A DNA stretch of 64,000 bases, taken from Vicinamibacterales bacterium. Its GTDB lineage: Bacteria > Acidobacteriota > Vicinamibacteria > Vicinamibacterales > UBA8438. The position numbers and the translations under genes are program-made. How positions within the stretch are numbered: the stretch's first letter is position 1; each line of letters opens with the position of its first letter. The stretch spans positions 3,074,896-3,138,895 of the forward strand of contig OZ244051.1 in NCBI GenBank assembly GCA_965215105.1, given 5' to 3'. Positions 6,977 to 60,322 of this stretch are shown piece by piece. The notes below the pieces were generated by a model. The model saw nothing but the letters and a program-made list of their open reading frames with translations. It had not been told where the DNA came from and did no database searches.

Positions 6977-7398
6977 CTGAACGCGGGTCCATGTGCGCAG
7001 GCTGGGGCAGATCCACCTCGCGCCGGGAGTTCGGGTGTCGTTGATTGAGCAGGGATCGCCGGATCCCCCTTGGTCCCTGCCCGGCACGCGTGGATTTGTC
7101 TTGTCCGACCGCGCGGGTGCTCGACAGTACCCTTGCGCCCCTTGCGCCCTCCAAGGTCCCCGGCACGTTGACGTCAACGCACCTCTGCGCCGCCCCGGCG
7201 TGGCAATTCCTGCACCCGCCGGCCCCCGCCACCGGCTCGTCCCATGCAACTCGGGCCGTTCCGCGTTTGGCCCCGTTCTTGCTCCCTGAAGCACCTCGTC
7301 CACGGCCTGCCGGCCCCGGGTCGCCCCCGCGACCCTCCGAGCGCGCCGCACGCCCCGCACGTCTCGGGTGTGGACTCCGGACGTCGCCGGGAGCACGA

Positions 7399-8495
7399 AT
7401 GCAGGACGCCGCCTACAAGCTCTTGTTCTCGCGCCCGCGCATGGTCCACGACCTGCTCGACGGCTTCGCCGCCCGAAGCTGGAGCGGCGTCCTCGACTTC
7501 GAGTCGCTGGCCCCCCTGCCCGCCAGCTTCGTCGGCCGGGAGCTCCAGCAGCGCCACGGCGACCTCATCTGGCGCGTCCGCTTCCGCGACGACCGCTGGC
7601 TCTACCTGGTCCTGCTCCTCGAGTTCCAGTCCAGGAGTCTGTGCCGTGAAACGGCGCGGATTCCTGGAGGGTTGGTTGGGCGCCCAGCGGAGCCGCAGGC
7701 GACGATGGGCGGGCTACCGTCGACCCAGCGATGGCGGTGCGCATCCTGGAGTACACCGCGCTGCTCTACCGGCGGCTGGTCGACCACGACGTGCTCCGAG
7801 AACACGGGGCCCTGCCGCCGGTGCTGCCCGTCGTCCTCTACAACGGCCGGCGGCGGTGGACGGCGCCGGTCGAGGTGACGAACCTGCTGGCGGCGGGGAG
7901 CGAAGTGCTGGCGCCGTACCAGCCGTCGCAGCGATACTATGTTCTGGACGTGGCGCGCGTGGCGGACGCGGACCTGCCGGCGGGCAATCTGGTGTCTGCG
8001 CTCATCGGTCTGGAGAAGACGCGCGACGCGGCGGGCCTGCGCGAGGCGCTGAAGGTGCTGTCCGACCTTCTGCGGAAACAGAAGGACGACGCGTTGACGC
8101 GGGCATTCGTGACGTGGCTGCACCACGGGCTGCGGCATGCGGGCCGGCTGCCGGCGGACGGGGAGGACCCGTTGGCGCAGTTGCAGGAGACGCAGACGAT
8201 GCTGGAAGAGACCGTGCGGGAATGGACGCGTGAATGGCTCGAGCAGGGCCGCGCCCAGGGCATCGAGCAGGGCCGCATCCAGGGCATCGAGCAGGGCCGC
8301 CACGAAGAACGGGCGCTGCTCTGCCGTCTGGCGGCCCGGAAATTCGACGCCGGGGCCGTCGAGGGGCTGGCCGCCGCCCTGGCCGGCGTCACCGACCCGG
8401 ACCGCCTTGCGCGCGTCGGCGACTGGATCATCGAGTGCGCGACGGCGTCGGAGCTGCTGGCCCGCGTCCGCGGCGACAACGGGCCGGGCGGCTGA
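7399..8495 (+). pseudogene. Rpn/YhgA-like nuclease, copy 2, interrupted by an 83-bp insertion
   Basis: MQDAAYKLLFSRPRMVHDLL...LLLEFQS is followed by a frame break. The remainder (MAVRILEYTALLYRR... to GDNGPGG) is in the ORF 7731-8495. Confidence 0.8.
7633..7715 (+). other. 83-bp insertion of unknown origin inside rpn copy 2
   Basis: Absent from copy 1, which reads gagttccagtcc|accgtcgaacc. It contains the hairpin gccgtGAAacggc and the 10-bp palindrome tgggcgccca. Its length is not a multiple of 3. Confidence 0.8.
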
Positions 8496-8977
8496 GGCGC
8501 CGGCGGCGGGGACCCGGCGGCGGCGCGGCATCGGCGTCGAACGCGACCGGATCGCGCGTTTGAGCGCCCCGACATCTTCTCACCTCTCGACGCGCACCCC
8601 TGCCCGACCGTTCCCCCTTGCGGCTTCTCGGACGACAACACCGCGGAGCGAGCGTCGTGGCGCAGCTTCAACCCAACCGGGCCGCTTGACGTCGATCTCC
8701 AGACGGAGCAGCACACCTCGTCGGGCGTGCGGCCCGCTGCTGAACCACGTGCAAGCGTTGGCGTCTCCCGAGAACGCTGTACCCCCGTTCGTGACGACCT
8801 CGACAGCCGGGAACCCGCGCCCGGCGGTCGACGCATTCGTCGTCGCCAACGTCGCTACGGGAGTCTGACCCCGAACTTCGTCTATCATGACGCCCGCGAG
8901 GTCAAGCCGGCGCTCGCCGGGGGCCTTGCGAGGAAGGCGTCTGGCAGTCAGCGCCAACACCGCGGGATGAGGTGCCG

Positions 8978-9082
8978 CCGGGAACGTCATGACCGTTGAT
9001 TCCAAGTCCCGAAGGACCGCCGCCGCACCGGACTTCCACATCGCGCGGTGCTACCGGGAACGTCATGACCGTTGATTCCAAG
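8978..9082 (+). repeat. 29-bp direct repeat (8978-9006 and 9054-9082) duplicating the SNF2 gene start region
   Basis: ccgggaacgtcatgaccgttgattccaag occurs twice, 76 bp apart. Each copy carries an ATG. Confidence 0.9.
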
Positions 9083-12000
9083 GGGCGCGAGCTCTTCATC
9101 GTCGACAACAGCGTCTCCGGCTGGACCGGACTCCGGTACCTGGAGGAGTGGTGCGGCATCGCGAAGGCGTTCGACATCGCGACCGGGTACTTCGAGATCG
9201 GCGCCCTGCTCACCCTCGACGGCAGATGGCAGGGACTCGACAAGATCCGCATCCTGATGGGGGCGGAGACGACCCATCGGACCCGGAAGGCCATTCTCGC
9301 CGCCGTCCGGGCGCAAGCGCTCGACAGGCTCGACGAGAGCATCGAGGAGGACAAGCAGCCGAACCCCTTCCTGCACGGGGTCCCTGCGATCCTCGACGCC
9401 CTCCGCTCCGGGCAGATCGAGTGCCGGGTCTACGACAAGGACAAGTTCCACGCCAAGGCCTACATCACCCACGCCAAGCTCGAGGTAGTGGGCGCCCAGG
9501 CGCTGGTGGGATCCAGCAACTTCACGCCGCCGGGTCTGACGAAGAACGTCGAACTGAACGTCCAGATCCAGAGCGCGCGCGAGGTCGCGCAGCTCCAGGA
9601 GTGGTTCGAGACGCACTGGCACGAAGCGAGCGACGTCACCGAGGCCGTCATCGAGGCGGTCTCGCGCCATACGCACCTGTACTCGCCGTTCGACGTCTGC
9701 GCGAAGGCCCTGCAGCAGTTCTTCCGGGGGCACGAGCTGACCGCGACCGAGTGGGACGAGAGACGGTCGCGCATGTTCCCGCACCTCGACCGCTATCAGA
9801 GGGAGGCGTACTGGGCGCTCATGAAGATCGCCCGGCAGCATCTCGGCGCGTTCCTCTGCGACGGCGTGGGCCTCGGCAAGACGTTCGTCGGTCTGATGCT
9901 GATCGAGCGGCTCGTCCTCCACGAAGGCAAGCGTGTCGCGCTGTTCGCACCGAAGGCAGCCAAGGAGGGAGTATGGGAGCCCCACCTGCGTCAGTGGCTC
10001 CCGCACATCGGCGGCGTCGGCGGTGGCGCGGACTTCAGCAATCTGGCCGTGTTCAGCCACACCGACCTCGGACGAAGGGGGGACTTCCCGGCGCGTTTCC
10101 GACGCATTGCGGAACTCGCCGACGTCGTCGTCATCGACGAGGCGCACCACTTCCGCAACCCCGGCCGCCGGGAGGACCCCGAAAAGGGAATCGAACCGTC
10201 GCGCTACTACCGCCTGTTCGATCTGCTCGACAACGCGGAACGCCCCAAGACCGTGTTCATGCTGACGGCCACGCCCATCAACAACCGCCTGAGCGACTTC
10301 CGCCACATGACCGAGCTCTTCACCCGTCGCGACGAGGCCTACTTCGCGCGCACGATCGGCGTGAACAACCTGCGGGCCCACTTCAACCAGATGGAGAAGA
10401 CACTTCGCAGCCGTGTCGGGCAGGACGCGGCGGACGCCGCGGAGCACATGACCGACGCTCAGGAGATCCTCCTGACCGACGAGATCTTCCGCCAGCTCGT
10501 CGTCCAGCGGAGCCGCGCGTACGCCCGCGAAAGCCAGATTCGCGAGCACGGCAAAGCGACGGCCTTCCCCGAGCGGAAGGACCCCCAGGTGGCGGCGTAC
10601 TCGATCCGCAAGACCTACGGACGGATACTCGACCTGTTCGAGAGGGCCTTCGCGAAGCAGAACCCGCTCTTCGCACTCCCGATGTACTACCCCCTGCATT
10701 GGTACCGGGGCCCGGACAAGAACATCGACGCGTTCGAGGAGAACCGCCAGAAACAGGTGGTCGGCCTCATCCGGACCAACTTTCTCAAGCGCTTCGAGAG
10801 CTCCGTCGCCGCCTTCGAGCTCTCCTGCGACCGCCTGCTCCGGAAGCTGCTCGCCTTCGTCGAGGTCCACAGCGAGAGCGCCGCCGAGAAGAAGCGCCTC
10901 GAGAGGTGGAAAGCACAGAATGCCGAGGTCCTGGGCTACGCCGTCCAGCGCCAGCTCGATCTCTGGGGCGAGGACGACACAGAGGGGGACGACGAAGACA
11001 TCGTTCCCCAGGAGATGCTCGAAGCCGTCGTGCGCCTCGACCGGGCCGAGTACGACGTCGAGGAGATGATGTCCGAGACCTTCCTCGACCTCGACCAGAT
11101 CGCGCAGTTCCTCGACGAGGCGCGGAAGTTCGAGCCGAAGCACGACGACAAGCTCCGGAAGCTCATCCGCCTTCTCAAGTCGAAGACGCTGGCCGACCGG
11201 AAGATCCTGATCTTCACCGAGTTCGCCGACACCGCCCGCTACCTCAAGCGTCACCTGGACTCGGCCGGTATCGAGGGCGTCGAGCAGGTGGACAGCGCCA
11301 CGAAGAAGAACCGTGCAGACGTCATCCAGCGCTTCGCGCCCTACTACAACGGCCTCTCCTCCCCGGAGCTCGCCGAGCACGGCCGCGAGGAGATCCGCGT
11401 CCTGATCTCCACGGACGTCCTCTCCGAGGGTCTCAACCTCCAGGACGCCTCGCGGATGATCAACTACGACATCCACTGGAACCCCGTGCGCCTCATGCAG
11501 CGCATCGGCCGGGTGGACCGGCGCATGAACCCCGAGATCGAGAAGCGGCTCGTCGCCGACCGTCCCGACGCGGCCGCCTCGCGCGGCAAGGTCTGGTTCT
11601 GGAACTTCCTTCCGCCCGAAGAGCTGAACGACATCCTCTCGCTCTACACGCGGGTCACGCAGAAGACGCTGCTGATCTCCGAAACGCTCGGCATCGAGGG
11701 CAAGAAGCTCCTCACTCCCGAGGACGACTTCAAGGCGCTGAAGGAGTTCAATCACGCCTACGAGGGCACGCGCACGGCCGTGGAGGACATGCACCTCGAG
11801 TACCAGGCGCTGCTCCAGGCCGACCCGGAGCTGGAGGCGCGCCTTGCCCGCTTCCCCGGCGCGATCTTCAGCGGCCGCGAGCGCGTGGTGAAGGGCGTGC
11901 GCGGTGTCTTCCTCTGCTACGCGCTCCCCGCCCTCGACAAGGAGAAGAACGAGTTCACCGAGGAGGCCGGCACCACCCGCTGGTACCTCTACGACCTCGA

Positions 12001-12214
12001 CCGCGCTACCATCCTCGACGAACCGGGCGAGATCGTCGCGAGCATCCGCTCGAAGCCCGAGACGCCCCGACGCTGCGCCATGGAAGAGCAGACGCTCCTC
12101 GACGTCCGCAAGCGGATCGAAAAGCACGTCAAGAACAGCTACCTGAAGCGCGTGGATGCCCCGGTCGGCGTCAAGCCGCGACTGCGCTGCTGGATGGAGC
12201 TGAACGAGAGCTGA
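9065..12214 (+). CDS. PLD(HKD) nuclease - SNF2 family helicase fusion
   Basis: FHAKAYITH...GSSNFT is an HKD motif. The SNF2 motifs DGVGLGKT, VVIDEAHHFRN, LTATPINN and NYDIHWNPVRLMQRIGRVDR are present. ATG at 9065 is preferred to the upstream TTG at 8996. Confidence 0.85.
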   Translation: MTVDSKGRELFIVDNSVSGWTGLRYLEEWCGIAKAFDIATGYFEIGALLTLDGRWQGLDKIRILMGAETTHRTRKAILAAVRAQALDRLDESIEEDKQPNPFLHGVPAILDALRSGQIECRVYDKDKFHAKAYITHAKLEVVGAQALVGSSNFTPPGLTKNVELNVQIQSAREVAQLQEWFETHWHEASDVTEAVIEAVSRHTHLYSPFDVCAKALQQFFRGHELTATEWDERRSRMFPHLDRYQREAYWALMKIARQHLGAFLCDGVGLGKTFVGLMLIERLVLHEGKRVALFAPKAAKEGVWEPHLRQWLPHIGGVGGGADFSNLAVFSHTDLGRRGDFPARFRRIAELADVVVIDEAHHFRNPGRREDPEKGIEPSRYYRLFDLLDNAERPKTVFMLTATPINNRLSDFRHMTELFTRRDEAYFARTIGVNNLRAHFNQMEKTLRSRVGQDAADAAEHMTDAQEILLTDEIFRQLVVQRSRAYARESQIREHGKATAFPERKDPQVAAYSIRKTYGRILDLFERAFAKQNPLFALPMYYPLHWYRGPDKNIDAFEENRQKQVVGLIRTNFLKRFESSVAAFELSCDRLLRKLLAFVEVHSESAAEKKRLERWKAQNAEVLGYAVQRQLDLWGEDDTEGDDEDIVPQEMLEAVVRLDRAEYDVEEMMSETFLDLDQIAQFLDEARKFEPKHDDKLRKLIRLLKSKTLADRKILIFTEFADTARYLKRHLDSAGIEGVEQVDSATKKNRADVIQRFAPYYNGLSSPELAEHGREEIRVLISTDVLSEGLNLQDASRMINYDIHWNPVRLMQRIGRVDRRMNPEIEKRLVADRPDAAASRGKVWFWNFLPPEELNDILSLYTRVTQKTLLISETLGIEGKKLLTPEDDFKALKEFNHAYEGTRTAVEDMHLEYQALLQADPELEARLARFPGAIFSGRERVVKGVRGVFLCYALPALDKEKNEFTEEAGTTRWYLYDLDRATILDEPGEIVASIRSKPETPRRCAMEEQTLLDVRKRIEKHVKNSYLKRVDAPVGVKPRLRCWMELNES

Positions 12215-12218
12215 GCCG

Positions 12219-13271
12219 ATGCCGACCGACCACCGCGAACGCCTCGCCGGCATCCGCCGCTTCGATCAACTCGTCGCCTACCTGCGCGACGAGCTCGGCT
12301 GGCCGATCGACTCGGACGACTTCGAGGAAGCGACCTTCGAGTACACGCCGGACGAGCTCGGGATCGACGCGAAGAACGCGGCCAAGATCCAGGAGATCAA
12401 GCGCCTGCGACCCCTCGCACCGGGCCAGCCCTGGGGCATCTTCTTCGTGAAGTTCGAACCGAAGCGCCTGCCCGTGGTGGCGCTGCGCCGCATCCTCGGA
12501 CGGGTGGCGCTCAAGAAGCGCGGCTCCGCCAACCCGTCCGAGCGCCAGGCCTGGGCCGCCGACGACCTGCTGTTCGTGTCGAACTACGGTGAGGGCGACC
12601 AACGGCGGATCGCCTTCGCCCACTTCTCGAAGCCGCGCGACGGCCACGACCTGCCGGCCCTGAAGGTGCTCGGCTGGGACAACCTCGACACGCCGCTCCA
12701 CCTCGACGCCGTAGCCAGCGAGCTGCGGGACCACCTCACTTGGCCCGACGACGAGAGCGACCCCGACGCCTGGCGCGACCACTGGCGCGCCGCGTTCACG
12801 CTGCGCCACCGCGAGGTCATCACCACGTCGAAGCAGCTCTCCGCGCGCCTGGCCGTGCTGGCGCGCGCCATCCGCGACCGCACCCGGACCGCGCTGGCCA
12901 TCGAGACCGAGACCGGCCCCCTCACGAAGCTCATGAACGCGTTCCGGACCGCGCTCGTCCACGACCTCGACGAGGCCGGCTTCGCCGACATGTACGCCCA
13001 GACCATCGCCTACGGCCTGCTCTCGGCCCGCATCACCGACCCCGGCCGGCGCACCGCCGACGACTTCGCCGCCCACCTGCGGACGAACCCCTTTCTCCGG
13101 GAGCTGATGGAGACCTTCCTCCATGTGGGCGGCCGCCGCCGCCCGGCCGGCGGACCCGGCATCGACTTCGACGAGCTGGGCGCCTCGGACGTCGTGGAGC
13201 TCCTCGACCGGGCCAACATGGAGGCCGTCGTCCGCGACTTCGGCGACCGGAACCCCCAGGAAGACCCGGTG
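12219..13271 (+). pseudogene. N-terminal remnant of a type ISP/IIG (PglX/DrmMI-class) N6-adenine DNA methyltransferase; catalytic domain deleted
   Basis: FADMYAQTIAYGLLSARI ... [12 protein letters not shown] ... RNPQEDPV matches the pre-catalytic helical region of this class. The sequence breaks exactly where the IHFYE.../NPPY domain should start. The frame changes at 13272-13275. Confidence 0.65.
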
Positions 13272-13275
13272 CGTG

Positions 13276-14019
13276 TCCGAGGAGGTCTGGGGCTTCCACA
13301 TCGGCGGCTATCAAGTTTGCCACAAATGGCTCAAGGACCGGAAGGGTCGCACGCTCTCGGACGAGGACGTCGTCCAATACCAGAAGATCGTCGTCGCCCT
13401 GAACGAGACCATCCGGATCATGACCGAGATCGATGAAATCATCGAAGCCCACGGCGGCTGGCCCGACGCGTTCCGGGCGGGTGCGCAGGCGGGTGCGCCA
13501 TCGCACGGGACCGCGGAGGTGCTCCCGTTCCGGCCGCGGACGGTCCAGCCCGCGCCGGAGGACCGCTACGTCACCTGCGTGCCCCTCGTCCCACTCAAGG
13601 CCGCCGCCGGCGCCTTCAGCGACCCGCAACACATCGACGATGACGACGTCGAGTGGGTATCCTTGGAGTCCGGCCGTCGCCTGCGCAAGGGTATGTTCGT
13701 CGCCCAGGTCGTCGGCAGGTCCATGGCGCCCGCGGTCCCCGACGGCGCCTGGTGCCTCTTCCGGGCGCCCGTCGAGGGTACGCGCCAAGGCAAGACCGTC
13801 CTCGTCCAGCTCCGCGACGCCGCCGACCCCGAGACCGGACAGCGCTACACCGTCAAGCGCTACGAGAGCCAAAAGGCGAAGGGGGCAACTTCTTGGCATC
13901 ACCAGAAGATCGTCCTCGAGCCCGTCAACCCGGACTTCGAGTCGATCGTGCTCACCGGCGCGGACGAAGACGAGCTGCGGGTGGTCGCAGAACTGGTCGA
14001 GGTGCTTGGAGGCCGATGA
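13276..14019 (+). CDS. Type ISP/IIG C-terminal motif fused to a LexA-like S24 peptidase domain
   Basis: [50 protein letters not shown] is the conserved C-terminal end of the class. It is followed by [13 protein letters not shown] (LexA-like cleavage-site region), [11 protein letters not shown] (Ser at 13720-13722) and YTVKRY (Lys). Internal ATGs near 13420 could give a standalone S24 protein. Confidence 0.6.
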
Positions 14020-17000
14020 GTGGCTCCGGAGCAGCTCGAACCGCGTCTGGAGCTGCTCCGCGAGGAGTACGTCCTCGTTCAGGCGTGGAAGAAGACCGCA
14101 TCCTACATCCGCTACCACAACTGGTTTTCCGACACGCTGGCCCTCGACCGAGCGGCCGTGAACCTGCCAACGTTTCTCGGCGAACTGCGCGAGCGTCTGC
14201 AGGCTCCGGAGACTTGGCGGAACGATCCGTTGCGCATCGTTCCGGCGCCGAAGAGGCAGCACTGGAGAGTGCGGGAAGGTGCGTGGGAGCCCGTCAAGGG
14301 AGCGCCCTCGGCGCGGCTTCGACCGCTCGCCCACGTCAGCTTGGAGGAGCAGGTGGTGGCGACGGCACTGATGCTCTGTCTCGCCGACCGGGTCGAGACT
14401 CGGCAGGGGGATCCGTGGCGGTCGGTACGTGATCCGGAATCGCGAAGGCAGGTGGTTTCCTACGGAAATCGGCTGTTCTGCGACGCCGTCGGTAGCGAAC
14501 TACGCCATCGGTGGGGATCGTCCAAGCTCTACCGAGCCTACTACCAGGACTACCGTACGTTCCTCTCCCGGCCGGAAATCGCGGCCGAGGCGGTACCGGC
14601 AGCGGAGGAAAAGCGTGTCTACGTCGTCCATGCGGATCTTCGGCAGTTCTACGACCGCGTCCGCCCGGATCTGCTTTCCGCAGCCATCGGCCGCGTTCGC
14701 CGCGACGGAGATAATGCCGGATTCTTCTCTCTGGCGGCGTCGGTGCTCGATTGGCGCTGGGATCCGCGTGATGGAAGAGACGTCCGGATCTACGCAGGGC
14801 AGGCGGAGCTGGAGGACTTCACGCGGGTGGCGTTGCCGCAGGGGCTCGTCAGCGCGGGCTTCTTCGCCAACGTCGCGCTCCTTTCGTTCGACGAAGCGCT
14901 GCGCGCGGCGATCGGGACCGAGATCGCTTTCGGGATCCGCTTGGTGGATTCGTGCCGGTACGTCGACGACTTGCGGATCCTCGTTGCCGTTGACCGGAAC
15001 TCCGCCACCTCGTCGGACGACCTTGAGACCGCCGTCTCCAGCGTCTCCAGATGGCTGAGCAGGGTGCTGCAAGAGCATGCGCCCGGTCTCGCGCTGTCCC
15101 CCGAGAAGACCCAGGCCGCAGCGCTTGGAGGCGACGAACGGCCGCTGGTGCGACAGAGCGCGAAGATGAACCGCATCCAGTCGGCGGTGTCGGGGGGATT
15201 CGACGCGCTCGGGGGCGAGGAGATCCTCGACGCCATCCAGGGGCTGATGCGCGCTCAGGAAGCACTCAGCGTCGGCGACGACAGCGGCTGGCGATTTTCG
15301 CCGGTTCCAGACGTCCGCAACGAGACGGTCGCCAGATTCGGCGCTGCCCGATATCGAACCACGTTCCGTTCCATCAGGCCGCTGCTCCAGGACGATGACA
15401 CGCCGGACGAGTCTGAGGTTGGAAGAGCCGATACCGCGGCTGGCGGGCGACTGCGGGTAGCGCGCACGCGGCGGGAGCTGGACGAGGATGCGAGGGCGTT
15501 TGCGCTGGGTCTGATTCAGCGGTGGATCGACGATCCGTCGAACGTCCGCCTGCTTCGGATCGGCCTGGATCTCTGGCCGGACGTGAAGCTGTTGCAGGAA
15601 GTCCTCTCATTGCTTCGTCCGTTCACGGAAACGGGGGGCCGTCGCAACGCCCCGAGGCGCGTCGCTTGGTACTGCCTCGCTGAAGTCCTGCGCGCAGGAG
15701 CCACGGAGACGGGCCTCGTGGCGGACACCGAATCGCTCCCAGCGGGGGTCGACGTGGGTCGCTACCGGGAGGAGCTCCGTAAGGAGGCCAGTCGCCTGGC
15801 GACGTTGCCCTGGCCGACCATTCCCTGGTACCTCCGACAGCAGGCACTGCTGTTCCTTGCCGCGTTCGATCCCGCCGGGGCGCCGGTCGTGCGCACGGGA
15901 AGAGCGCCGGAGACCAAGCACTACCGGGAGCTCATCCTATTCCTGCGCGGTGGACTGCACCCGCGACCGGCCTCGGAATTCGCCACTTTCGCGATCCTGG
16001 CTAGGCGCGCGTTCGTGGGTCGAGCACGCGCCGTCGAGCTGACGCGCCCGGCTCTCAATCCCTCGGAGAAGCGGCAGATCGCCCGGAGGGACCCGAGTTT
16101 CCTTCTCGAACTCATCCACGCGGAGACGCAGGGTCTACTCTTCGACGATCTTCCGGCGCGCGTGCGCGAGGATCTGTGCAGGATTACTGATAGTTCGGGC
16201 GGAGACTCTGGCACCTTGGCCGACGCGGTCCTGCGCTCTCATCCGACCGGCTCACTCCGCAACGAGCTCTCCCTTCTCCGCTTCGGGAGGGCTTTTCTCG
16301 AACAGTGGCGGCAGCAGGAGTCTCCGTCCGAGGTGATCACGCCAGGGCAGGTCAAGCTCAACGTCGCCGAGGACCACGGGGTCCCAGACGTAGAAGGCCT
16401 ACGGATAACGGGGAGTCTGGCCGACCCATCGGGGTCCCTGTACGAAGTGCCCGCATGGTGTGAAGCCGGCGAGCGGTGGCGCTTCCAGCTCGGATTCTTG
16501 CTGCGGTTCATCCTGTCGGGGCAGCCGGATTTCACGCGTCCGGTACGCCGGGCGAGTTGGAGAGAGACCGAATTGGCCTATCGTCCTGCCGAGAACCACT
16601 GGTACCAGCGGCTGTACGGCCTGTACAACGGGCAGCCGGCCTTCGGAGACGACTGGCTTCCGATCACGGACTGGACGGAAGGATTCCTCCTCGCCCTCCT
16701 GCGCTGGCCGCGGTGCCGTGCTTCCGAGGGGTTCCGTTGGGTCGAACAGGGCATCGAAGAGGCGAGGACGCAGATTGGCCGGAGGATCGCCGCCCTCGAG
16801 AAACGTCGCGGCAGCGCTACCTGCGCGTTGATCCTGCCGCTGCCGGCCAAGCGACCGACCGCCACGAACGCGAATCGACCGTTACGCGCCTGCGTGGTCC
16901 AGGCGGCCGTTCCGGCGGCCGACGACTTTCGGCACACCGACCTGGCGCTCAACGAGTCCGCAATTCGGCGAAGACACCGCAATCACCTGTCGGCGGCCCT

Positions 17001-17757
17001 CGCAGCCGTGGAACGCATGCTGGCCCTGCGGGAGACGCACAAGGAAAGCGAAGGGCGGCTCGATTGGCTGATTCTACCCGAGCTTGCCGTCCATCCGAAT
17101 GACGTTCGTACTCATCTGGTTCCTTTCGCACGGGCTCACAGGGCGCTGATCCTCACCGGGCTGACCTATGAGGAGGTTCTGGTGGGGCAACCGCTGGTCA
17201 ACTCAGCTCTGTGGATCATTCCGGAGTGGTCGGACGCCTACGGGCTGCAGATCAGGACTCGCCGTCAGGGGAAGGCGCATCTCGCCCCGAATGAGCAGGC
17301 GTTCAACGGAGCTGGCGCCCGTATCCTGCAGGGCTTTCGGCCCTGCCAGTGGTTGATCGGCTATCCGTGGTCTGACGCGGAGGATGCCCAGCCTGCCTGG
17401 CTGACGGCGGCCGTCTGCTATGACGCGACGGATCTTGGTCTTGCTGCGGATCTCAGGGATGAGTCGGATATACTGGCGATCCCGGCGCTCAACCAAGACG
17501 TCAAGACGTTCGACCAGATGGCCCTGGCGTTGCACTACCACATGTTCCAGCTCGTGGTCGTCGCCAACAACGGGCAGTACGGCGGGAGCAACGCCTATTG
17601 GCCGAGGAAAGATGTTGTTGTCAGGCAGGTCTTCCATACCCATGGACAGCCGCAGGCCTCGATCTCGTTCCTCGAAATCGATGACATCGGCGCATTTCTG
17701 GAGCGCCACGACGGAGCCGACTGGAAGCATCCGCCTGCAGGTCTGAACCGTCGCTGA
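14020..17757 (+). CDS. Reverse transcriptase - nitrilase (C-N hydrolase) fusion, DRT1/UG1-like
   Basis: RT motifs: RLRPLAHVSLEEQVVATALMLCL, VVHADLRQFYDRV, LPQGLVSAGFFANVAL, YVDD (14959-14970) and LSPEKT. Nitrilase triad context: LILPELAV, QGKAHLAP and AAVCYDATD (Cys at 17416-17418). The GTG start directly abuts the upstream TGA (14017-14019). Confidence 0.85.
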   Translation: MAPEQLEPRLELLREEYVLVQAWKKTASYIRYHNWFSDTLALDRAAVNLPTFLGELRERLQAPETWRNDPLRIVPAPKRQHWRVREGAWEPVKGAPSARLRPLAHVSLEEQVVATALMLCLADRVETRQGDPWRSVRDPESRRQVVSYGNRLFCDAVGSELRHRWGSSKLYRAYYQDYRTFLSRPEIAAEAVPAAEEKRVYVVHADLRQFYDRVRPDLLSAAIGRVRRDGDNAGFFSLAASVLDWRWDPRDGRDVRIYAGQAELEDFTRVALPQGLVSAGFFANVALLSFDEALRAAIGTEIAFGIRLVDSCRYVDDLRILVAVDRNSATSSDDLETAVSSVSRWLSRVLQEHAPGLALSPEKTQAAALGGDERPLVRQSAKMNRIQSAVSGGFDALGGEEILDAIQGLMRAQEALSVGDDSGWRFSPVPDVRNETVARFGAARYRTTFRSIRPLLQDDDTPDESEVGRADTAAGGRLRVARTRRELDEDARAFALGLIQRWIDDPSNVRLLRIGLDLWPDVKLLQEVLSLLRPFTETGGRRNAPRRVAWYCLAEVLRAGATETGLVADTESLPAGVDVGRYREELRKEASRLATLPWPTIPWYLRQQALLFLAAFDPAGAPVVRTGRAPETKHYRELILFLRGGLHPRPASEFATFAILARRAFVGRARAVELTRPALNPSEKRQIARRDPSFLLELIHAETQGLLFDDLPARVREDLCRITDSSGGDSGTLADAVLRSHPTGSLRNELSLLRFGRAFLEQWRQQESPSEVITPGQVKLNVAEDHGVPDVEGLRITGSLADPSGSLYEVPAWCEAGERWRFQLGFLLRFILSGQPDFTRPVRRASWRETELAYRPAENHWYQRLYGLYNGQPAFGDDWLPITDWTEGFLLALLRWPRCRASEGFRWVEQGIEEARTQIGRRIAALEKRRGSATCALILPLPAKRPTATNANRPLRACVVQAAVPAADDFRHTDLALNESAIRRRHRNHLSAALAAVERMLALRETHKESEGRLDWLILPELAVHPNDVRTHLVPFARAHRALILTGLTYEEVLVGQPLVNSALWIIPEWSDAYGLQIRTRRQGKAHLAPNEQAFNGAGARILQGFRPCQWLIGYPWSDAEDAQPAWLTAAVCYDATDLGLAADLRDESDILAIPALNQDVKTFDQMALALHYHMFQLVVVANNGQYGGSNAYWPRKDVVVRQVFHTHGQPQASISFLEIDDIGAFLERHDGADWKHPPAGLNRR

Positions 17758-17840
17758 TTGCCCTTGAGGGTCAAGAATGCCACTGTTTTCCACAGCAGGG
17801 GCGTCGCGGGTCTGAACATGAGATCATCGGGAGGTTCGTC

Positions 17841-20800
17841 GTGACAACCTTCGCCGCTGGCGCGCGCCGCTTGCCGCTCCACCACGTCACCATCCGCGTC
17901 CCCTGGCACGACGGGGGCTGGACCGGGAAGGTGTGCGCCCGACCGCTGGACAACTCGAGCTGCCTGATCCTGCCCCGCATCGGCGAGGGCCGGCGCGACG
18001 ACGTGGAGACGCGTTGCGCGGGCCGGCGGCTCGACGAGCTCGACCGCGCCGACCTGCCACCCTGCGTGAGCGAGCGCGTCTCGTTCATGGCGCCCTTCGC
18101 GTTCCCGCGGACGATGACGCACCCTTACACGGAGTTCTACCCCGAGACCTACGGGCACTTCGCACCCACCCCCTTCGTGCAGCCGGCGTACTCCGCTGCC
18201 TGCGTGCCCTTCCGATGGGTGCTGCGCGAGAAGGTCGAGGGGAGCCCCAAGGACGACGAGATCGGGATCGCCGATCGTCTGAAGATCGGCTGGTTGCCCG
18301 AGCGCGAGCCCGAGATCCACAATCACCGGGGCCATCAGGTCGATACCGCCTGGGTCCAGGAGCGCGGGAACCAGCTCGCGCTGCTCGACACCTTCTTCGG
18401 CGCGCTCCGACCCCAGGAGTCGCTCTGCTTCTTCTATGCCAAGCGCACCCCGCTCTCCGAACAGTCCCGACGCGTGATCGTCGGCGTGGGCCGCGTGCTT
18501 TCCGTGGGCGACGCCACGGAGTACGCATACAAGGTCGAGAACCCGCCGCTCCAATGCGTGCTCTGGGAGCGCAACGTTGGCCACTCCGTCCGACCCGGCT
18601 TCGCGGACGGCTTCCTCTTCCCCTACCGGGAGGCGTTGGAGCTCGCCGACCGCGAGAGGGTCGACCCCGAAGAGTTCGTGGCCTTCGCTCCCGACGAGCA
18701 CTTCGACGCCTACTCCTACGGCTCGGAGCTCCTGACCCACGATGGCGCCGTGGCGTCCCTCGTGGCCTGCGCGGCGGCGCTGCACCGGATCCGCGACCGG
18801 ATAGAGGGACCGTGGGACGAGGCGCTCGCCTGGATCGACACGCAGCTCAACCGCCTGTGGAAGGCGCGCGGCGCGTTCCCCGGCCTCGGCTCGGCGCTCT
18901 CCGCGTTCGGCTACGAGTGGGGCTTCCAGCACGGGAGCCTGCTCGCCTACGAGATCGAACTGCTGCGAGAACGAGACGGCGGCGACCCGTGGGTGCTCGT
19001 GGAAGCCGTGATGGATGCACCCGGGAAGCTCGGCGGCCCCGTGGCGAAGCTCCTCACCGACGGTCTGTGCAGGGGCTGGAAGCGCCTCGCCGACGAGCGG
19101 CGGGCCCTGCTCCAGCTCCTCGGCCGTTGCGCCGTCTCGGAGGATCAGGCGCTGCGCTTCTACGACACTACGGCACGGGCGGAGGCCGGCATCGAGGCCT
19201 GCGACGCCGAGTTGCTGCGCAATCCGTACCTCATATTCGAACGCGACCGGCGCGCCGCCGACCCCATCGCCTTCGGCGCGGTGGACCGGGGCCTGTTCCC
19301 GGATGAGGCGGTGCGGGAGCAGTTCCCCGTGCCGAAGCCGAGTTTCATCGAAGACCCGGCCGACGAACGGCGGGTGCGCGCACGCGTCGTGGACCTCCTG
19401 GAACACGCGGCGGGCGAAGGCCACACGCTGCTTCCCAGGAGCTGGGTCATCCGCAGGGCGCGGGAGCACGCGCTCCAGCCGCCGTGCCCGCTCGGCGAGA
19501 ACGTGCTCGACGCCTGCGAGGAGAGCTTCGATCCGGTGATCGCGCGCGTCGCGACGCGCGCGGGCGAGCCCGCCTACCAGGTGGCGCGGCTCGTAGAGTG
19601 CCGCAAGATCATCCGCCGCGAGGTGCTCGGTCGGAAGAGGGGAAAGCCGCACGCGGCCGATCACGAGTGGCGTGGGCTGGTAGACGCGGGGCTCGATGAG
19701 CCGCTGCCCGCGTATCCCGAAGAGCGCGAGCTGGAGAAGCGTGCGCGGCGCGAGAAAGCTACCGCGCTCGAGCAGCTCTTCCGCTCGCGGCTCTCCGTGC
19801 TGATCGGGCCGGCGGGGACGGGCAAGACGACGCTGCTACGGATGCTCTGCTCGCTTCCCGGCCTCGCCGAGAGAGGGCTGATACTCCTCGCCCCCACGGG
19901 CAAGGCCCGCGTGCGACTGGAAGAACAGACCCGCATGCGAGGCGCCGGCCAGACGCTGGCGCAGTTTCTGATCCGGCGGCAGCGCTACGACGGGAAGACC
20001 GGCGCCTACTTTCCCAAGCCCAGGGCGCCTCGCTGCGGTGACTACCGGACCGTGATCGTGGACGAGTGCTCGATGCTCACCGAAGAGCAGCTCGCCGCGC
20101 TGATCGACTCGCTCAGCAACGTCGAGCGGCTCGTGCTCGTCGGCGATCCGCGCCAGCTTCCGCCGATCGGGGCCGGCCGTCCGTTCGTGGACATCGTTCG
20201 AGGGCTCGAGCCGGAGAACGTCGAGTTGGTCTTTCCGCGCTGCGGGCCGGGCTATGCCGAGCTCACGATCTCGCGACGCCACCAGGGCGAGGCCCGGGCC
20301 GACGTGCTCCTGGCATCGCACTTCAGTGGACGGCCGCTCGATCCTGCCGCAGACGCCGTGCTGGACGAGGGCGAGGAAAGAACGGACGGACGACTGCGGC
20401 TCGTGCGCTGGAACCACCCGGAGGAGCTTCAGGAGAAGCTCGTTGCCGAGCTGGTCCAGACCCTCGGGCTCGCCGGACCGGACGACGAACTGGGCTTCGA
20501 GGAATCGCTGGGCGGCGCGCGCCGCGGGGACAACCCGTGGGCCTTCTTCTTCAACCGGTTCGGCGACAACTCGGGAGCCGCCGCGCAGGCGGAAACCTGG
20601 CAGATGCTCTCGCCCCGGCGCGCCGGGCTCGTTGGGGTGGATGCACTGAACCGCACCCTCCAGACCCGGTTCCGGGTGAAGGTTCGCGAGCTCGCCGAGA
20701 CGGAGGGGTGGGGCCGCAAGGTGCCGCGGCCCTTCGGCCCGCAGACGCTCCTCTACGGCGACAAGGTCATCAACGTCATCAACCAGCGCCGGCGCGACGT

Positions 20801-21662
20801 CTGGCCGAAGCCGGCGGACGAGGCCTACCTCGCCAACGGAGACATCGGCATCGTCGTCGGGCAATACAAGTACCAGAAGAGCAAGTTCAGGGGCCTGCCG
20901 CGGAAGCTCGAGGTCGAGTTCGCGGGGCAACTGGGCCCCAAGTACGGGTTCCACCCCGGCGAGTTCGGAGACGAAGGGCGCAACCCGCTCGAGCGGGCCT
21001 ACTGCCTGACGGTGCACAAGACCCAGGGCAGCGAGTTCGGCGTCACCTTCGTCGTGCTCACCAACCCGTGCTGGCTGCTCTCACGCGAGCTCCTGTACAC
21101 GGCGCTGACCCGCCACAAGGACCGGCTGGTCATCCTGCACGAGGGCCCGCTCGTCGAGTATCGCCGCTATGCGGGCAACCAGCACTCGGAGATCGCCCGC
21201 CGCATGACGAACCTCTTTGCGGATCCGTTGCCGCGCGAAGTAGCCGTCGACGCCCGGCAACGCTTCCTCGAGGCAGGGCTCATTCATCGAACCGAGCGCG
21301 GTGACCTCGTGCGCTCGAAGTCGGAGCTGGTCATTGCCGACAAGCTTCACGCCCGCGGGATCGAGTACGCCTACGAGCAGCCTCTCGTCCTGCCCAACGG
21401 TCGCACGCGTTACCCGGACTTCACGATCGCGGATCACGCGCGGGGCGTGACCTTCCACTGGGAGCATCTCGGCATGGTCGACGACCCGGGGTACAGAGCC
21501 CGATGGGAGAGGAAGCGTGCCGAGTACCTGGAGTGCGGAATCGAGCCTCACGAGAACGGCGGGGGCCCGGACGGCACGCTGATCGAGACCCGCGACGAGC
21601 CGGGCGGGGGGCTGGACGCAGCGGCGATCGCGTCGGTGATTGACGAAGTGATTCTGGGTTGA
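17841..21662 (+). CDS. SF1 (RecD/AAA_30-like) helicase with a large unassigned N-terminal region and a C-terminal PD-(D/E)xK (Vsr/DUF559-like) nuclease motif
   Basis: GPAGTGKTT, VIVDECSM, VLVGDPRQLPPIGAG, TVHKTQGSEF and LYTALTRHKDRLVIL are helicase motifs. The C-terminus reads RSKSELVIADKLHARGIEYAYEQPL...YPDFTI...FHWEHLG. GGGAGG lies 6 nt before the GTG at 17841. Confidence 0.8.
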   Translation: MTTFAAGARRLPLHHVTIRVPWHDGGWTGKVCARPLDNSSCLILPRIGEGRRDDVETRCAGRRLDELDRADLPPCVSERVSFMAPFAFPRTMTHPYTEFYPETYGHFAPTPFVQPAYSAACVPFRWVLREKVEGSPKDDEIGIADRLKIGWLPEREPEIHNHRGHQVDTAWVQERGNQLALLDTFFGALRPQESLCFFYAKRTPLSEQSRRVIVGVGRVLSVGDATEYAYKVENPPLQCVLWERNVGHSVRPGFADGFLFPYREALELADRERVDPEEFVAFAPDEHFDAYSYGSELLTHDGAVASLVACAAALHRIRDRIEGPWDEALAWIDTQLNRLWKARGAFPGLGSALSAFGYEWGFQHGSLLAYEIELLRERDGGDPWVLVEAVMDAPGKLGGPVAKLLTDGLCRGWKRLADERRALLQLLGRCAVSEDQALRFYDTTARAEAGIEACDAELLRNPYLIFERDRRAADPIAFGAVDRGLFPDEAVREQFPVPKPSFIEDPADERRVRARVVDLLEHAAGEGHTLLPRSWVIRRAREHALQPPCPLGENVLDACEESFDPVIARVATRAGEPAYQVARLVECRKIIRREVLGRKRGKPHAADHEWRGLVDAGLDEPLPAYPEERELEKRARREKATALEQLFRSRLSVLIGPAGTGKTTLLRMLCSLPGLAERGLILLAPTGKARVRLEEQTRMRGAGQTLAQFLIRRQRYDGKTGAYFPKPRAPRCGDYRTVIVDECSMLTEEQLAALIDSLSNVERLVLVGDPRQLPPIGAGRPFVDIVRGLEPENVELVFPRCGPGYAELTISRRHQGEARADVLLASHFSGRPLDPAADAVLDEGEERTDGRLRLVRWNHPEELQEKLVAELVQTLGLAGPDDELGFEESLGGARRGDNPWAFFFNRFGDNSGAAAQAETWQMLSPRRAGLVGVDALNRTLQTRFRVKVRELAETEGWGRKVPRPFGPQTLLYGDKVINVINQRRRDVWPKPADEAYLANGDIGIVVGQYKYQKSKFRGLPRKLEVEFAGQLGPKYGFHPGEFGDEGRNPLERAYCLTVHKTQGSEFGVTFVVLTNPCWLLSRELLYTALTRHKDRLVILHEGPLVEYRRYAGNQHSEIARRMTNLFADPLPREVAVDARQRFLEAGLIHRTERGDLVRSKSELVIADKLHARGIEYAYEQPLVLPNGRTRYPDFTIADHARGVTFHWEHLGMVDDPGYRARWERKRAEYLECGIEPHENGGGPDGTLIETRDEPGGGLDAAAIASVIDEVILG

Positions 21663-24728: not shown

Positions 24729-25616
24729 ATGCTCACGCTGCTGCCGGACGAGAGAACGTGGCTCGAGCGATACCGGGAAGCGATCAGGCGGGAATGCCCG
24801 GGCGCGGTGCGGGATCTCCTGGTCTACGGTTCGAAGGCACGGGGGGACGCTCACGAGGACAGCGACATCGACATGCTCGTGATCGTGAAGAAGGGCCACG
24901 AGCACGTGACGAACCGGCTGAACGACATCGCGGACGACCTCGCGGTGACGGCGAACGCCGCACCGTCCGCGATCGCACTGACCGAAGACGAGTGGGGGCG
25001 CATGAAGGAGCTGAGACTGCCGTTCCAGCGGAATGTGGAACGGGACGCGGTCTCGGTGTTCTCCGGCCCGATCGAGGAGAGAGGACGGACACGGAGAACG
25101 CACGGCGAGCCGAGCCGGCGGCGGACGGGGTCACCGGCGACGCGAAGCGGAGGGCAGGCCGGCGAGGAGCGCCCGATGAACAAGGAAGCGGTGCTGGCCG
25201 AATGGGGAAGCGCGGCGGATGCGCTGATCGATACGAGGGTGATGAGGGAGCAGGGGCGCGTCAAGGGCACGATCTCTCGGGCCTACTACGCCATCCTGCA
25301 CGCGGCCAGGGCCGCACTGCTCGTCCACGACGTGAGCATGTCGAGCCACGAAGCGGTACGGAAGAAGTTCGGCGAGCACGTCGTGAAGAGAGGCGGGATC
25401 GAAAGGGAATGGGGCAGGATGCTGCACCCCAGCGCCAGGCAGCGGCAACTGGCGGACTACGGAACCTCGACGACGATCAGGTTCACCGAGCAGGACGCCG
25501 ACTCGGCGGCGGACAACGCGGAGAAGTTCGTGCAGCGCACGCGGGGCTATCTGCTGGCGGCGGGGTTGACCGAACGAGAGCTCGATAGCGTCGTCGACGA
25601 ATCGCTTCCGAGCTGA
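24729..25616 (+). CDS. MNT nucleotidyltransferase and HEPN domain in one open frame (type VII TA-like)
   Basis: The N-terminus YGSKARGDAHEDSDIDMLV is an MNT motif. The C-terminal helical part (ISRAYYAILHAARAALL...RQRQLADYG) is HEPN-like. No stop codon lies between them. An internal ATG at 25176 with GAGGAG upstream could also start HEPN separately. Confidence 0.65.
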   Translation: MLTLLPDERTWLERYREAIRRECPGAVRDLLVYGSKARGDAHEDSDIDMLVIVKKGHEHVTNRLNDIADDLAVTANAAPSAIALTEDEWGRMKELRLPFQRNVERDAVSVFSGPIEERGRTRRTHGEPSRRRTGSPATRSGGQAGEERPMNKEAVLAEWGSAADALIDTRVMREQGRVKGTISRAYYAILHAARAALLVHDVSMSSHEAVRKKFGEHVVKRGGIEREWGRMLHPSARQRQLADYGTSTTIRFTEQDADSAADNAEKFVQRTRGYLLAAGLTERELDSVVDESLPS

Positions 25617-31631: not shown

Positions 31632-32240
31632 TCAGAACGGCGGCTTCCAGACGGCGGCAAGGTCGAGCGAGAACCCCGGCAGGACCGTTTCGCCGGTGAC
31701 GACGTCGGTGCGCGGTTCGAGGCTGCCGTCGGCACGGTAGATGGCGACCTGCCGCCGAGCGGGATCGATGAGCCAGCCGAGGCGGGCGCCGTTGGCGCGG
31801 TACTCCTCCATCTTTCGCCGGGCGGCCGCACGAGAGTCGGACGGCGAGAGCAGCTCGATGACGAAGTCGGGGCACAGCGGCAGGAATCGCTCCTTGTCCT
31901 CGGGAGAGAGCCCGGCAAGCCGGCTGCGGAGGACCCAGGCCGCGTCCGGTGCACGCACCGCGCCGTTGGGAAGCTCGAAGCCGGTCGAGGAATCGAAGGC
32001 GACGCCGGTCCCATCCTCTTCGGCCCAGCGATAGAGGGCGCCGAACAGGAGACCGTTCCGCGCCCCCGTTTCCCCGCCGGCGGGCGTCATCACCGCGATG
32101 CTCCCTTCCGCGTTGCGCTCGATCCGCACGTCGCGATTCAGTTGGCAGAACTGGAAGAACTGCTCCCGGCTCATGTCGATGGCAGGGGCCATGTGCAGCT
32201 CGAAGGCCGCCGGGCCGGGCCGCTGATGGAGGACCGCCAT
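31632..32240 (-). CDS. Uma2 (DUF820) family endonuclease
   Basis: FFQFCQLN...RIERNAEGSIAVMTP and PDFVIELLSPSD match the family pattern. Confidence 0.8.
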   Translation of the reverse strand: MAVLHQRPGPAAFELHMAPAIDMSREQFFQFCQLNRDVRIERNAEGSIAVMTPAGGETGARNGLLFGALYRWAEEDGTGVAFDSSTGFELPNGAVRAPDAAWVLRSRLAGLSPEDKERFLPLCPDFVIELLSPSDSRAAARRKMEEYRANGARLGWLIDPARRQVAIYRADGSLEPRTDVVTGETVLPGFSLDLAAVWKPPF

Positions 32241-58962: not shown

Positions 58963-59293
58963 ATTCTCGGCAGAGGCCGAGCGGGACTTGGAGCTGATCT
59001 TCGACCATCTGTTCGACAGCTACCGCCGCCTTGGCGAACCGCTGGAAGACACGCTCGATCACGCGGCGGCGCGGGTCATGGGCGTTCGCGCAGCCGCGAA
59101 CCGCATCCCGACGGCGCCGTACAGGGGCAAGAGCCATGAGGACATTCTGCCAGGTCTGCGGCACCTGACCATCGACCGGGCGATCTACTGGTTCGACGTC
59201 GACGAAGGGCGCCGGACCGTCCGCGTGCTGGCGGTGTTCTTCGGCGGGCAGGATCACGTCCGCCGCATGCTGCGCCGACTTCTTGAAGACTGA
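58946..59293 (+). CDS. parE: RelE/ParE family toxin
   Basis: FSAEAERDLELIFDHL and IYWFDVDEGRRTVRVLAVFFGGQDH. Confidence 0.75.
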   Translation: MDFRLEFSAEAERDLELIFDHLFDSYRRLGEPLEDTLDHAAARVMGVRAAANRIPTAPYRGKSHEDILPGLRHLTIDRAIYWFDVDEGRRTVRVLAVFFGGQDHVRRMLRRLLED

Positions 59294-59462
59294 ACCGCAA
59301 TGCGAACGCGGCGCAGCGAGAGAGTCACGGCCCTCAGGCTCCGGTCCCGAGACGGTGTCCAGCCGCATCGGGTCCTCCGCCCGCGCAACTTTCGCCCACG
59401 CGACATCCGCCCTTCACCGTGACGTCGTACGGTTCTCCCAGCATCGTTGCAGGAGGTGTCGG

Positions 59463-60079
59463 ATGATTCGTCTTACGTCGAGGAGGATTGCAGCGGCGCT
59501 CGCCCTCGCCGCCGTGCTGGGGGCGGCCGGCGCAACAAGGGCCCAGAACGCCACCACCGGAACACTGGGCGGCGTCGTGCGCGACGCGCAACTGGGGGTG
59601 CTGCCGGGCGCGAGCGTCGTCGCCGTCCACGCCCCGACGGGAACGCGATACGAGGCCTTCACCCGCGCCGACGGCCGGTTCGACCTGCTGAACGCCCAGG
59701 TCGGCCCCTACGACCTCGAGATCGCCCTGAGCGGCTTCGGCACGCGGGCGTTGTCGGGCGTCGTCGTCACCCTCGGCGAGGCGACCGAGGTCCCGGTGAC
59801 CCTGCAACTCGCCACCATCACCGAGACCGCGGAGGTCACCGCGGAGGCGAGCGCCGTCGCGGACGGGCACGACGGCCGGGGTCGAGTCGGACGTCATCGA
59901 GACCCTGCCGACCCTCGAGCGCAACCTCCAGGACTTCGCGCGCACCACGGAGCGGCCGCTACGTCTACAGCCTCAACACGCCGGCCCGGCCCGGGTTCAC
60001 CGGCGACCGCTTCACGCGCGACGACCTGCGGAGCCGCTGGCAGGCCCAACTGGGGGTGCGCTACTCGTTCGGGCGGTAG
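59463..60079 (+). pseudogene. TonB-dependent receptor remnant (N-terminal carboxypeptidase-regulatory-like domain + plug start + last beta-strands only)
   Basis: Frame 1 has a signal peptide and GGVVRDAQLGVLPGASVVAVH...GRFDLLNAQVGPYDLEI. Frame 2 has VESDVIETLPTLERNLQDFARTT. Frame 3 ends RWQAQLGVRYSFGR*. The deletion junction is near 59951-59960. Confidence 0.7.
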
Positions 60080-60322
60080 GTAGCGTCGCCCGGATCGGTG
60101 TCGAGCCAGGCCCAAAACCGTCGCCTGCGGCTCCGCTCGCCCCCGACCTGCGCCACCTCCGACCGAGTGCCCAGGGATCCGGACCTGACCCCACCCGTCT
60201 TGCGCTGCTCCCCCGGCGATGTCCCGAACCGCGCGCACGTCGCCGCCGCCGACCGCCGTGACGGCCGCCCGAACTGCCATGCCTCTGTGCGGAGCCCTCA
60301 ACGACGGCAGGGTTTATCGTGC

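Follow-up and report, generated by a model that had tools for sequence, protein, structure and literature searches.

A Type ISP-like methyltransferase-specificity gene reduced to its two ends by an inherited internal deletion beside an intact PLD-SNF2 nuclease-motor gene in a Vicinamibacterales bacterium

The stretch of DNA analysed here, referred to as the window, comprises 64,000 nucleotides of a Vicinamibacterales bacterium (assembly GCA_965215105.1, contig OZ244051.1, positions 3,074,896 to 3,138,895). At 12219-14019 it carries the scar of one internal deletion in a methyltransferase-specificity gene, and what is left there is a pseudogene. The gene directly upstream, which encodes a nuclease-motor protein with PLD (HKD) and SNF2 domains, has a full-length coding body. 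By analogy with better known systems, the two-gene module is probably both restriction-minus and modification-minus (r-m-), with the intact PLD-SNF2 protein as a harmless orphan and not an unprotected active nuclease. Coordinates of the features are collected in Table 1.

One internal deletion in the methyltransferase-specificity gene

Homologues were collected in two scans that gave 80 loci each: a scan of a genome collection with the C-terminal piece as query, and a scan of metagenomes with the N-terminal piece as query, which is unbiased with respect to the C-terminus. In close relatives the PLD-SNF2 gene is followed by an open reading frame (ORF) of 1305-1342 amino acids. Its first 351 residues are 74-90% identical to the N-terminal piece and its last ~248 residues are 64-79% identical to the C-terminal piece. 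When window positions 12000-14400 were compared by blastn with about 30 homologous loci, the homology on the left stopped at 13270 in all but one of them and restarted on the right at 13271-13278. On this alignment evidence, a match to both ends of the same gene across a single base-precise breakpoint is not due to chance. An earlier note, made from the sequence by itself, had proposed that the gene was reduced to its termini with a change of frame, and the alignment to full-length homologues bears this out and gives the lost interval in terms of the homologue P0155 (Table 1).

The uninterrupted homologues have 2015-2228 nucleotides between the two breakpoints, a length of the form 3n+2 in 19 of 25 loci. 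The observed change of frame arises because the left piece breaks off after the second base of a codon and 3n+2 bases were lost; this fits exactly, and a sequencing error is therefore unnecessary as an explanation. Past the left breakpoint the homologues continue with the conserved CATCCACTTCTACGAGCACTTCCT (IHFYEHFL), and they are conserved right up to the right breakpoint as well. No microhomology or repeats at the two breakpoints could be inferred from 15 homologues. The lesion, as judged from these alignments, is a blunt internal deletion and not an exchange at a cassette boundary.

Much of the protein has gone with this interval. In P0155 it carries the motifs ILDPATGTG (ILDPATGTGTFL) and VIGNPPYS; the Pfam matches of this protein to N6_Mtase, MmeI_Mtase and Eco57I span residues 349-666, and the one to Type_ISP_C spans residues 763-1143. 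The whole catalytic domain is lost together with about 85% of the target-recognition domain (Type_ISP_C positions 1-289 of 342). The motif [ND]PP[YFW] is present in the expected interval of 69 of 70 full-length homologues. At the locus itself the absence of an NPPY or DPPY motif, already pointed out in the earlier note, extends to all six frames of 12219-14019, where neither [NDS]PP[YFWH] nor the S-adenosylmethionine (SAM)-binding motif I occurs. Nor did the missing 741 residues find a counterpart in the whole 64-kb window, as the best tblastn match had an E value of only 1.4.

Both ends of the gene are well preserved. The 5' remnant runs, as had been noted, to ...NPQEDPV, directly ahead of the point at which the N6_Mtase domain of the homologues begins with the conserved IHFYEHFL. 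Its amino-acid identity to residues 1-351 of full-length homologues is 85-90%, and it has one private substitution. The protein of the 3' remnant (P0002) matches Type_ISP_C positions 290-341 of 342 with residues 50-101 (Pfam, E 8.6e-11) and Peptidase_S24 with residues 159-291. The Type IIG model of PADLOC (1096 positions) is matched in two parts, the N-terminal part at 153-254 and the C-terminal part at 1014-1075. The Pfam scores of the S24 tail are 28.4-29.5 bits at a cut-off of 23.3, and its motifs GRSM, TVKRY and AAAG align with what are presumably S119, K156 and A84-G85 of LexA. With this Ser-Lys dyad and Ala-Gly site in a Peptidase_S24 fold the tail is LexA/UmuD-like and may cleave itself. 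A possible S24-only ORF of 199 amino acids starts at an ATG 14 nucleotides upstream of the stop of the remnant ORF, and no clear Shine-Dalgarno sequence was seen for it. The stop of the 3' remnant (14017-14019) abuts the start of the next gene, DRT1a. A scan of 8700-14200 for promoters and terminators found nothing.

The junction is also present in independent sequencing. Logan contigs of X1 (2019 study) and of X2, X3 and X4 (2024 study) cross 13270/13271 with 0-1 differences and no gaps, a 151-nucleotide contig of X7 (2025, from a third study) crosses it too, and the ENA metagenome contig L081 encodes an identical 405-amino-acid product. In five short-read assemblies from three studies, with depths of 2-29x, the junction is thus reproduced and the missing domain is not recovered; this evidence consists of assembled contigs, not raw reads. 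No loose ends at 13270/13271 were found in these five assemblies at ≥95% identity. An intact-allele path across 13270 would run from ...GAAGACCCGGT into CATCCACTTC..., and the undeleted continuation (CATCCACTTCTACGAG...; CATCCACTTCTACGAGCACTTCCTC after 13270) was seen only in contigs of relatives with 90-95% identity (X8).

Two strains can be distinguished among these samples. The sister strain (X1, X6 and L081) has in common a synonymous single-nucleotide polymorphism, 12770 C>T, and has a private in-frame deletion of 981 nucleotides in DRT1a (window 15745-16725, approximately residues 576-902, 327 codons), while DRT1a is intact in X2, X3 and the window. The deletion in the methylase gene is common to both strains and is therefore older than their split and stably inherited. 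The deletion is real in its full extent and is inherited in at least two strains. The closest intact relative among the 160 loci of the genome and metagenome collections has a nucleotide identity of ~90%, from which the deletion cannot be dated. An origin of the junction in faulty assembly, or as a minor variant of a population in which the intact allele prevails, is extremely improbable: the window possibly comes from a metagenome-assembled genome and the junction was inspected in contigs, but it recurs without loose ends across the three studies and in two distinguishable strains.

Table 1. Positions of the features of the deleted locus, its partner gene and its neighbours. Positions refer to the window unless a locus is named.
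Feature	Position	Strand	Description
YhgA/Rpn-like (Transposase_31) gene	7045-7878		Just upstream of the defence island
76-bp duplication, 5' end of PLD-SNF2	8971-9082	+	36-nucleotide block at 8971-9006 and 9047-9082
PLD(HKD)-SNF2 nuclease-motor gene (P0003)	9065-12214	+	1049 amino acids, intact coding body
5' remnant of methyltransferase-specificity gene	12219-13270	+	350 native codons and 2 nucleotides, family-specific N-terminal region
Remnant ORF as translated	12219-13436	+	405 amino acids, 350 native and 55 non-native
Deletion junction	13270/13271	+	~2.1-2.2 kb (3n+2) lost, residues 352-1092 of the 1339-amino-acid P0155
Out-of-frame tail of remnant ORF	13271-13436	+	55 non-native, low-complexity residues; stop TGA 13434-13436
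3' remnant, original frame	13273-14019	+	Last ~248 codons, one base out of frame with the 5' remnant
Type_ISP_C end piece in 3' remnant	13273-13425	+	Final ~52 positions of the specificity domain; a linker comes next
Possible S24-only ORF (P0157)	13420-14019	+	199 amino acids; called by a gene caller on an independent contig
LexA-like S24 domain of 3' remnant	13597-13995	+	
S24 motif AAAG	13597-13617	+	Cleavage-site-like
S24 motif GRSM	13714-13731	+	Ser
S24 motif TVKRY	13849-13866	+	Lys
DRT1a (UG1 reverse transcriptase-nitrilase)	14020-17757	+	Intact in the window
PDC-S68 (RecD-like SF1 helicase)	17841-21662	+	Candidate defence gene, intact
Insertion sequence interruptions of the methylase gene	L003:8245-9473, L014:8117-9453, L067:7540-8630, L077:7448-9614, L010:6652-7952		Species-representative genomes

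The intact two-gene module and its relation to known systems

The homologues show what the deletion started from. Of the 80 metagenome loci, 54 have at least 3.6 kb of sequence after the start of the gene. A full-length gene in a single frame is found in 51 of these, 24 with an S24 tail and 27 ending just past the specificity domain, and the other three are otherwise disrupted. An N-terminus joined to the C-terminus occurs in none of the 54. A natural architecture made up of the N-terminal region, the C-terminal motif and S24, which had been named as the case that would speak against a deletion, is rejected by this census, as is a programmed frameshift.

The PLD-SNF2 gene stands directly upstream of the methylase gene in 52 of the 54 loci, and the genes further upstream differ by locus and are unrelated (PhoX, PD40, PIN and cadherin-like genes in six homologous loci). 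The window has a YhgA-like gene, an unknown gene and a tricorn protease as neighbours of the pair. Since the PLD-SNF2 gene adjoins and the further neighbours are unrelated, the pair is self-contained, with a nuclease-motor and a methylase-reader. In its intact form the module consists of a PLD(HKD)-SNF2 nuclease-motor and a second protein of ~1170-1340 amino acids. The latter combines a family-specific N-terminal region, a gamma-class N6-adenine methyltransferase and a target-recognition domain of the Type ISP kind; roughly half of the family members end in a LexA-like S24 tail. The retained N-terminal region was modelled by AlphaFold2 with a pLDDT of 66 and a pTM of 0.46, and Foldseek found no match to it in PDB at E ≤ 0.001 (top TM ~0.2). 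An experimental study of a two-gene PLD-SNF2 and Type ISP-like methylase module was not found in the literature.

The synonymous divergence of PLD-SNF2 between L001-L017 and the window (9065-12214) is 0.15-0.25 across loci labelled as different phyla (Vicinamibacterales, Spirochaetia, Binatia and others). Such a low divergence across phylum labels points to a recent horizontal spread of the module.

Judged by domain content, the pair would function as a Type ISP enzyme divided over two genes and equipped with an HKD nuclease, and it falls outside every named system considered. The likeness to Type ISP enzymes (LlaGI and LlaBIII; PDB 5ffj and 4xqk) is clear in the intact homologue, which matches them over residues 423-895 (phmmer, E 6e-24 to 5e-26). 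The homologues match Type_ISP_C positions 1-341 (Pfam, E 1.2e-77), and an ATP-dependent SF2 motor and a nuclease are found in both. However, a Type ISP enzyme is one polypeptide whereas there are two genes here, in the window and in 52 of the 54 loci. The Type ISP nuclease is an Mrr-like PD-(D/E)XK domain and not PLD/HKD with an SNF2-like motor, and the methylase of the present family has its own N-terminal region of 350 amino acids and often the S24 tail. The window itself lacks the SAM motif, the NPPY motif and the complete Type_ISP_C domain of a Type ISP enzyme.

The best match among solved structures is the Type IIL enzyme DrdV of the MmeI family (PDB 7lo5/7lvv), with an E value of 1.1e-30 over residues 339-886, and the Pfam family MmeI_Mtase also matches the intact methylase-specificity protein. 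DrdV and MmeI have their own N-terminal PD-(D/E)XK nuclease and need no motor, whereas a separate PLD-SNF2 gene provides both here. Type I enzymes belong to another protein family and have three subunits, with recognition in a separate HsdS.

Three multi-gene systems have parts in common with the pair. MANTIS, or Gao_RL (MtsA-D), has a PLD/SF2 effector and a separate N6-adenine methylase and serves as a working analogy for the window. Membership of MANTIS requires the AAA+ ATPase MtsA as well as MtsB, and neither flanks the pair in the window or in the homologues. In the BREX-related Type-2 BR systems the effector carries an HKD endonuclease ahead of a Swi2/Snf2 helicase in one protein, and an N6-methyltransferase accompanies it; these systems are defined by a DUF499 AAA+ ATPase and have a DUF3780 gene in 98% (PMC12839542). 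PLD-SNF2 has this HKD-Swi2/Snf2 fusion, but neither DUF499 nor DUF3780 was found in the window or beside the homologues examined. Class 1 DISARM brings together SNF2 (DrmD), PLD (DrmC) and N6-adenine methylase (DrmMI) parts, and the C-terminal half of the helicase has weak DrmD matches (PADLOC and NCBIfam). Membership of DISARM was rejected, with no DrmA or DrmB (DUF1998) in 7045-21662 and a NCBIfam DrmD score of 132 bits against a cut-off of 610. There was no DrmMI match for the methylase.

The same LexA-like S24 domain is found at the C-terminus of many unrelated defence enzymes (L026-L072). Examples are L026:6977-10531, L033:4607-10534, L057:7292-10501, L061:8096-10513 and L047:8012-10456, and the carriers include Type I HsdR, Type III Res-like proteins, YprA/ArmC-like helicases of ~1975 amino acids, DUF2075-type ATPases and Eco57I-like methylases. 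The site PL..LkAAAG.F and the motifs GxSMxP and TVK are conserved in these tails. No literature on S24 tails of restriction enzymes was found in the library searched.

The PLD-SNF2 partner and the consequence of the deletion

The impression given in the earlier note that the adjacent PLD-SNF2 gene is intact holds for its coding body, with a duplication at the 5' end as a qualification. The protein aligns end to end with its homologues and matches the PADLOC profile 'HKD+Snf2' with an E value of 1.1e-58. According to Pfam, PLDc_2 at residues 84-208 is followed by ResIII, SNF2-rel_dom and Helicase_C, and the nuclease is of the PLDc_2/NgoFVII-type HKD kind. The motifs HAK (amino acids 129-131, H129-x-K131), GSSN (149-152), GLGKT (269-273), DEAH (358-361), TATP (401-404) and QRIGRVDR (812-819) are invariant across 18 homologues. 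Just one column that is otherwise invariant carries a private change, a lower number than in most intact homologues, and the ratio of non-synonymous to synonymous substitution rates (dN/dS), at 0.12-0.25, does not differ from that between intact homologues. The tests on dN/dS and private substitutions can hardly tell a recent deletion from remnants under constraint. A structure model of PLD-SNF2 had a pLDDT of 52.7, too poor for a fold search.

The nuclease-helicase was earlier described as left without a cognate methylase. This is correct in that the catalytic domain is gone, but the loss is not one of protection only, as most of the recognition domain went with it. The deletion would thus have taken sequence recognition along with methylation, and the products of the gene would now be limited to the 405-amino-acid remnant product and possibly the 199-amino-acid S24-only protein. 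Since recognition would be lost together with methylation, the module is best regarded as r-m-. PLD-SNF2 would have no partner to load it on DNA and would therefore be harmless, with a gene that has not decayed so far. Null mutants of hsdM or hsdS in Type I systems are r-m- in the same sense, because the intact HsdR motor-nuclease cannot find DNA, and the cell is viable. In MANTIS the effector MtsD combines a PLD nuclease with an SF2 ATPase and finds its target through the specificity domain of MtsC, a separate N6-adenine methylase; every MtsC deletion is reported to be non-toxic and to abolish restriction (bioRxiv 10.64898/2026.09.23.753747). The analogy with these systems makes it probable that the intact PLD-SNF2 of the window is a harmless orphan.

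Lesions in other loci agree with the harmless-lesion model as far as sequences can tell. The methylase gene is interrupted by insertion sequences of IS630, IS4 or IS1634 type in L003, L014, L067 and L077 and by an IS3 element in L010, and it has deletions in L018 and L160. Each of these lesions hits the recognition domain or a part of the gene ahead of it. PLD-SNF2 is uninterrupted in L003, L010, L014, L018, L067 and L160, while in L077 it is itself cut to its last ~98 codons. The reverse case, a truncated PLD-SNF2 with an intact methylase, was found once (L141).

Four further loci (L007, L016, L042 and L048, around position 10000) have independent deletions that start within PLD-SNF2 and end within the methylase or the S24 tail, and in L042 residues 24-75 of PLD-SNF2 are fused to residue ~128 of S24. 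These loci were obtained with the C-terminal query, so that their retained 3' end is an ascertainment effect. Insertion sequences of an IS630-, IS4/IS701-, IS1634- and IS3-like group also break DRT1a (L004:13924-15060 and L014:11527-12846).

Several points weigh against the r-m- reading. The dependence of PLD-SNF2 on its methylase partner is taken by analogy for the whole two-gene family, and binding of PLD-SNF2 by the remaining 350 N-terminal residues may persist. The search for another methylase or specificity partner covered the 64-kb window, out of a genome of ~6.9 Mb, and a rare or minority intact allele could still exist in the same strain. There is no relaxed constraint in PLD-SNF2 or in either remnant, which fits a recent deletion and continued function equally well. 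Metatranscriptome (RNA) runs yielded only short pieces from relatives.

The duplication at the 5' end of PLD-SNF2 suggests another way in which the nuclease might be tolerated. The duplicated block of 36 nucleotides contains the ribosome-binding region, the ATG and the first six codons, and a unique insert of 40 nucleotides lies between the copies. The ATG of the first copy (8989) opens an out-of-frame reading frame of 28 codons that has its stop at 9073-9075 and so runs over the real start at 9065. The duplicated leader might divert ribosomes and act as a second, compensatory lesion through poor production of PLD-SNF2. The duplication and the upstream reading frame are directly visible in the sequence, 13 homologues have the leader in single copy, and the contigs of all four runs examined have the duplication with 0 differences. 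However, the second copy retains its own start context, with the same 11 or more nucleotides upstream and the ATG, so initiation there is still possible, and the duplication is a possible attenuator and not a knockout. The stop 8 nucleotides downstream of the real ATG may even permit re-initiation. Tolerance through poor production is on the whole unlikely.

Re-purposing of the remnants together with the downstream reverse transcriptase (RT), one of the options raised in the earlier note, was also considered. The remnants would then be functional and kept by selection, as a free UmuD'-like S24 protein of 199 amino acids, an N-terminal fragment bound to PLD-SNF2 or both, re-wired with the RT. 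Neither remnant has an internal stop in its native frame, private changes number 0-1, dN/dS resembles that of intact copies, the S24 ORF is called by a gene caller, its Ser/Lys dyad and AAAG site are intact, its stop abuts the start of DRT1a, and S24 tails adjoin DRT1a or PDC-S68 in several other loci. On the other hand, the deletion shifts the reading frame, no clear Shine-Dalgarno sequence precedes the internal ATG whereas DRT1a has its own GGAGG 7 nucleotides upstream of its GTG start, and an open frame is weak evidence in DNA with 70% G+C. Short database proteins with Type_ISP_C and S24 are indistinguishable from gene-call fragments. Among the 34 loci with room downstream, DRT1a follows the methylase gene in only two (2 of 18 loci of the S24 type and none of 16 of the other type) and PDC-S68 in nine. 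The 327 codons missing from DRT1a in the sister strain also argue against a selected S24-DRT1a unit. The proposal of re-purposing with the RT is thus not supported by the distribution of the genes, and selection for functional remnants is rather improbable. A more specific version, in which the deletion frees the 199-amino-acid S24 protein and leaves an adaptor that holds PLD-SNF2, so that the remnants would form a DNA-damage (RecA*)-responsive accessory of the neighbouring RT and helicase defences, is quite improbable.

The absence of decay in PLD-SNF2 would also be expected if the protein were still active and another locus of the genome encoded a related methylase-specificity protein that both targets it and protects the chromosome. 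This is very unlikely, as PLD-SNF2 adjoins its own partner in 52 of the 54 loci, which suggests specific pairing, and a Pfam DNA methyltransferase domain was found in none of the 39 predicted ORFs of the window that were scanned.

The surrounding defence island and the meaning of the deletion

The two genes downstream of the pair are complete in the window. DRT1a matches its PADLOC profile PDLC03745 over positions 5-1176 of 1176 (E 0), and PMC13275509 treats DRT1 as a stand-alone defence system. PDC-S68 matches over positions 4-1219 of 1221 (PADLOC, E 0) and has the Pfam domains AAA_30 and UvrD_C_2. Together with the r-m- module, DRT1a and PDC-S68 would be independent neighbours in a defence island that is being eroded by deletions in this lineage.

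Downstream of the island there are a fused nucleotidyltransferase-HEPN protein and a Uma2-family putative endonuclease (24729-25616 and 31632-32240). Further away, the gene at 59283-60083 retains only the CarboxypepD_reg start of a TonB-dependent receptor, and an IS4-type DDE transposase (61165-62364) is found near it.

The loss of a defence gene by deletion is ordinary, and the locus itself is a pseudogene. Its value is that of a clean, inherited natural knockout of a widespread two-gene PLD-SNF2 and Type ISP-like methylase module, with the methylase-specificity gene gutted and the nuclease-motor intact through at least two strain splits and in samples from three studies. It also gives a view of a defence island that is eroding step by step through deletions in a single population, with the methylase lost first and part of DRT1a later in the sister strain. 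At least six other lineages have lesions of the methylase only that take the recognition domain as well. Taken together, these lesions predict that in this family, as in MANTIS and Type I systems, it is the methylase partner that brings the nuclease to its target. If this is true, such systems could be lost or re-specified without killing the host.

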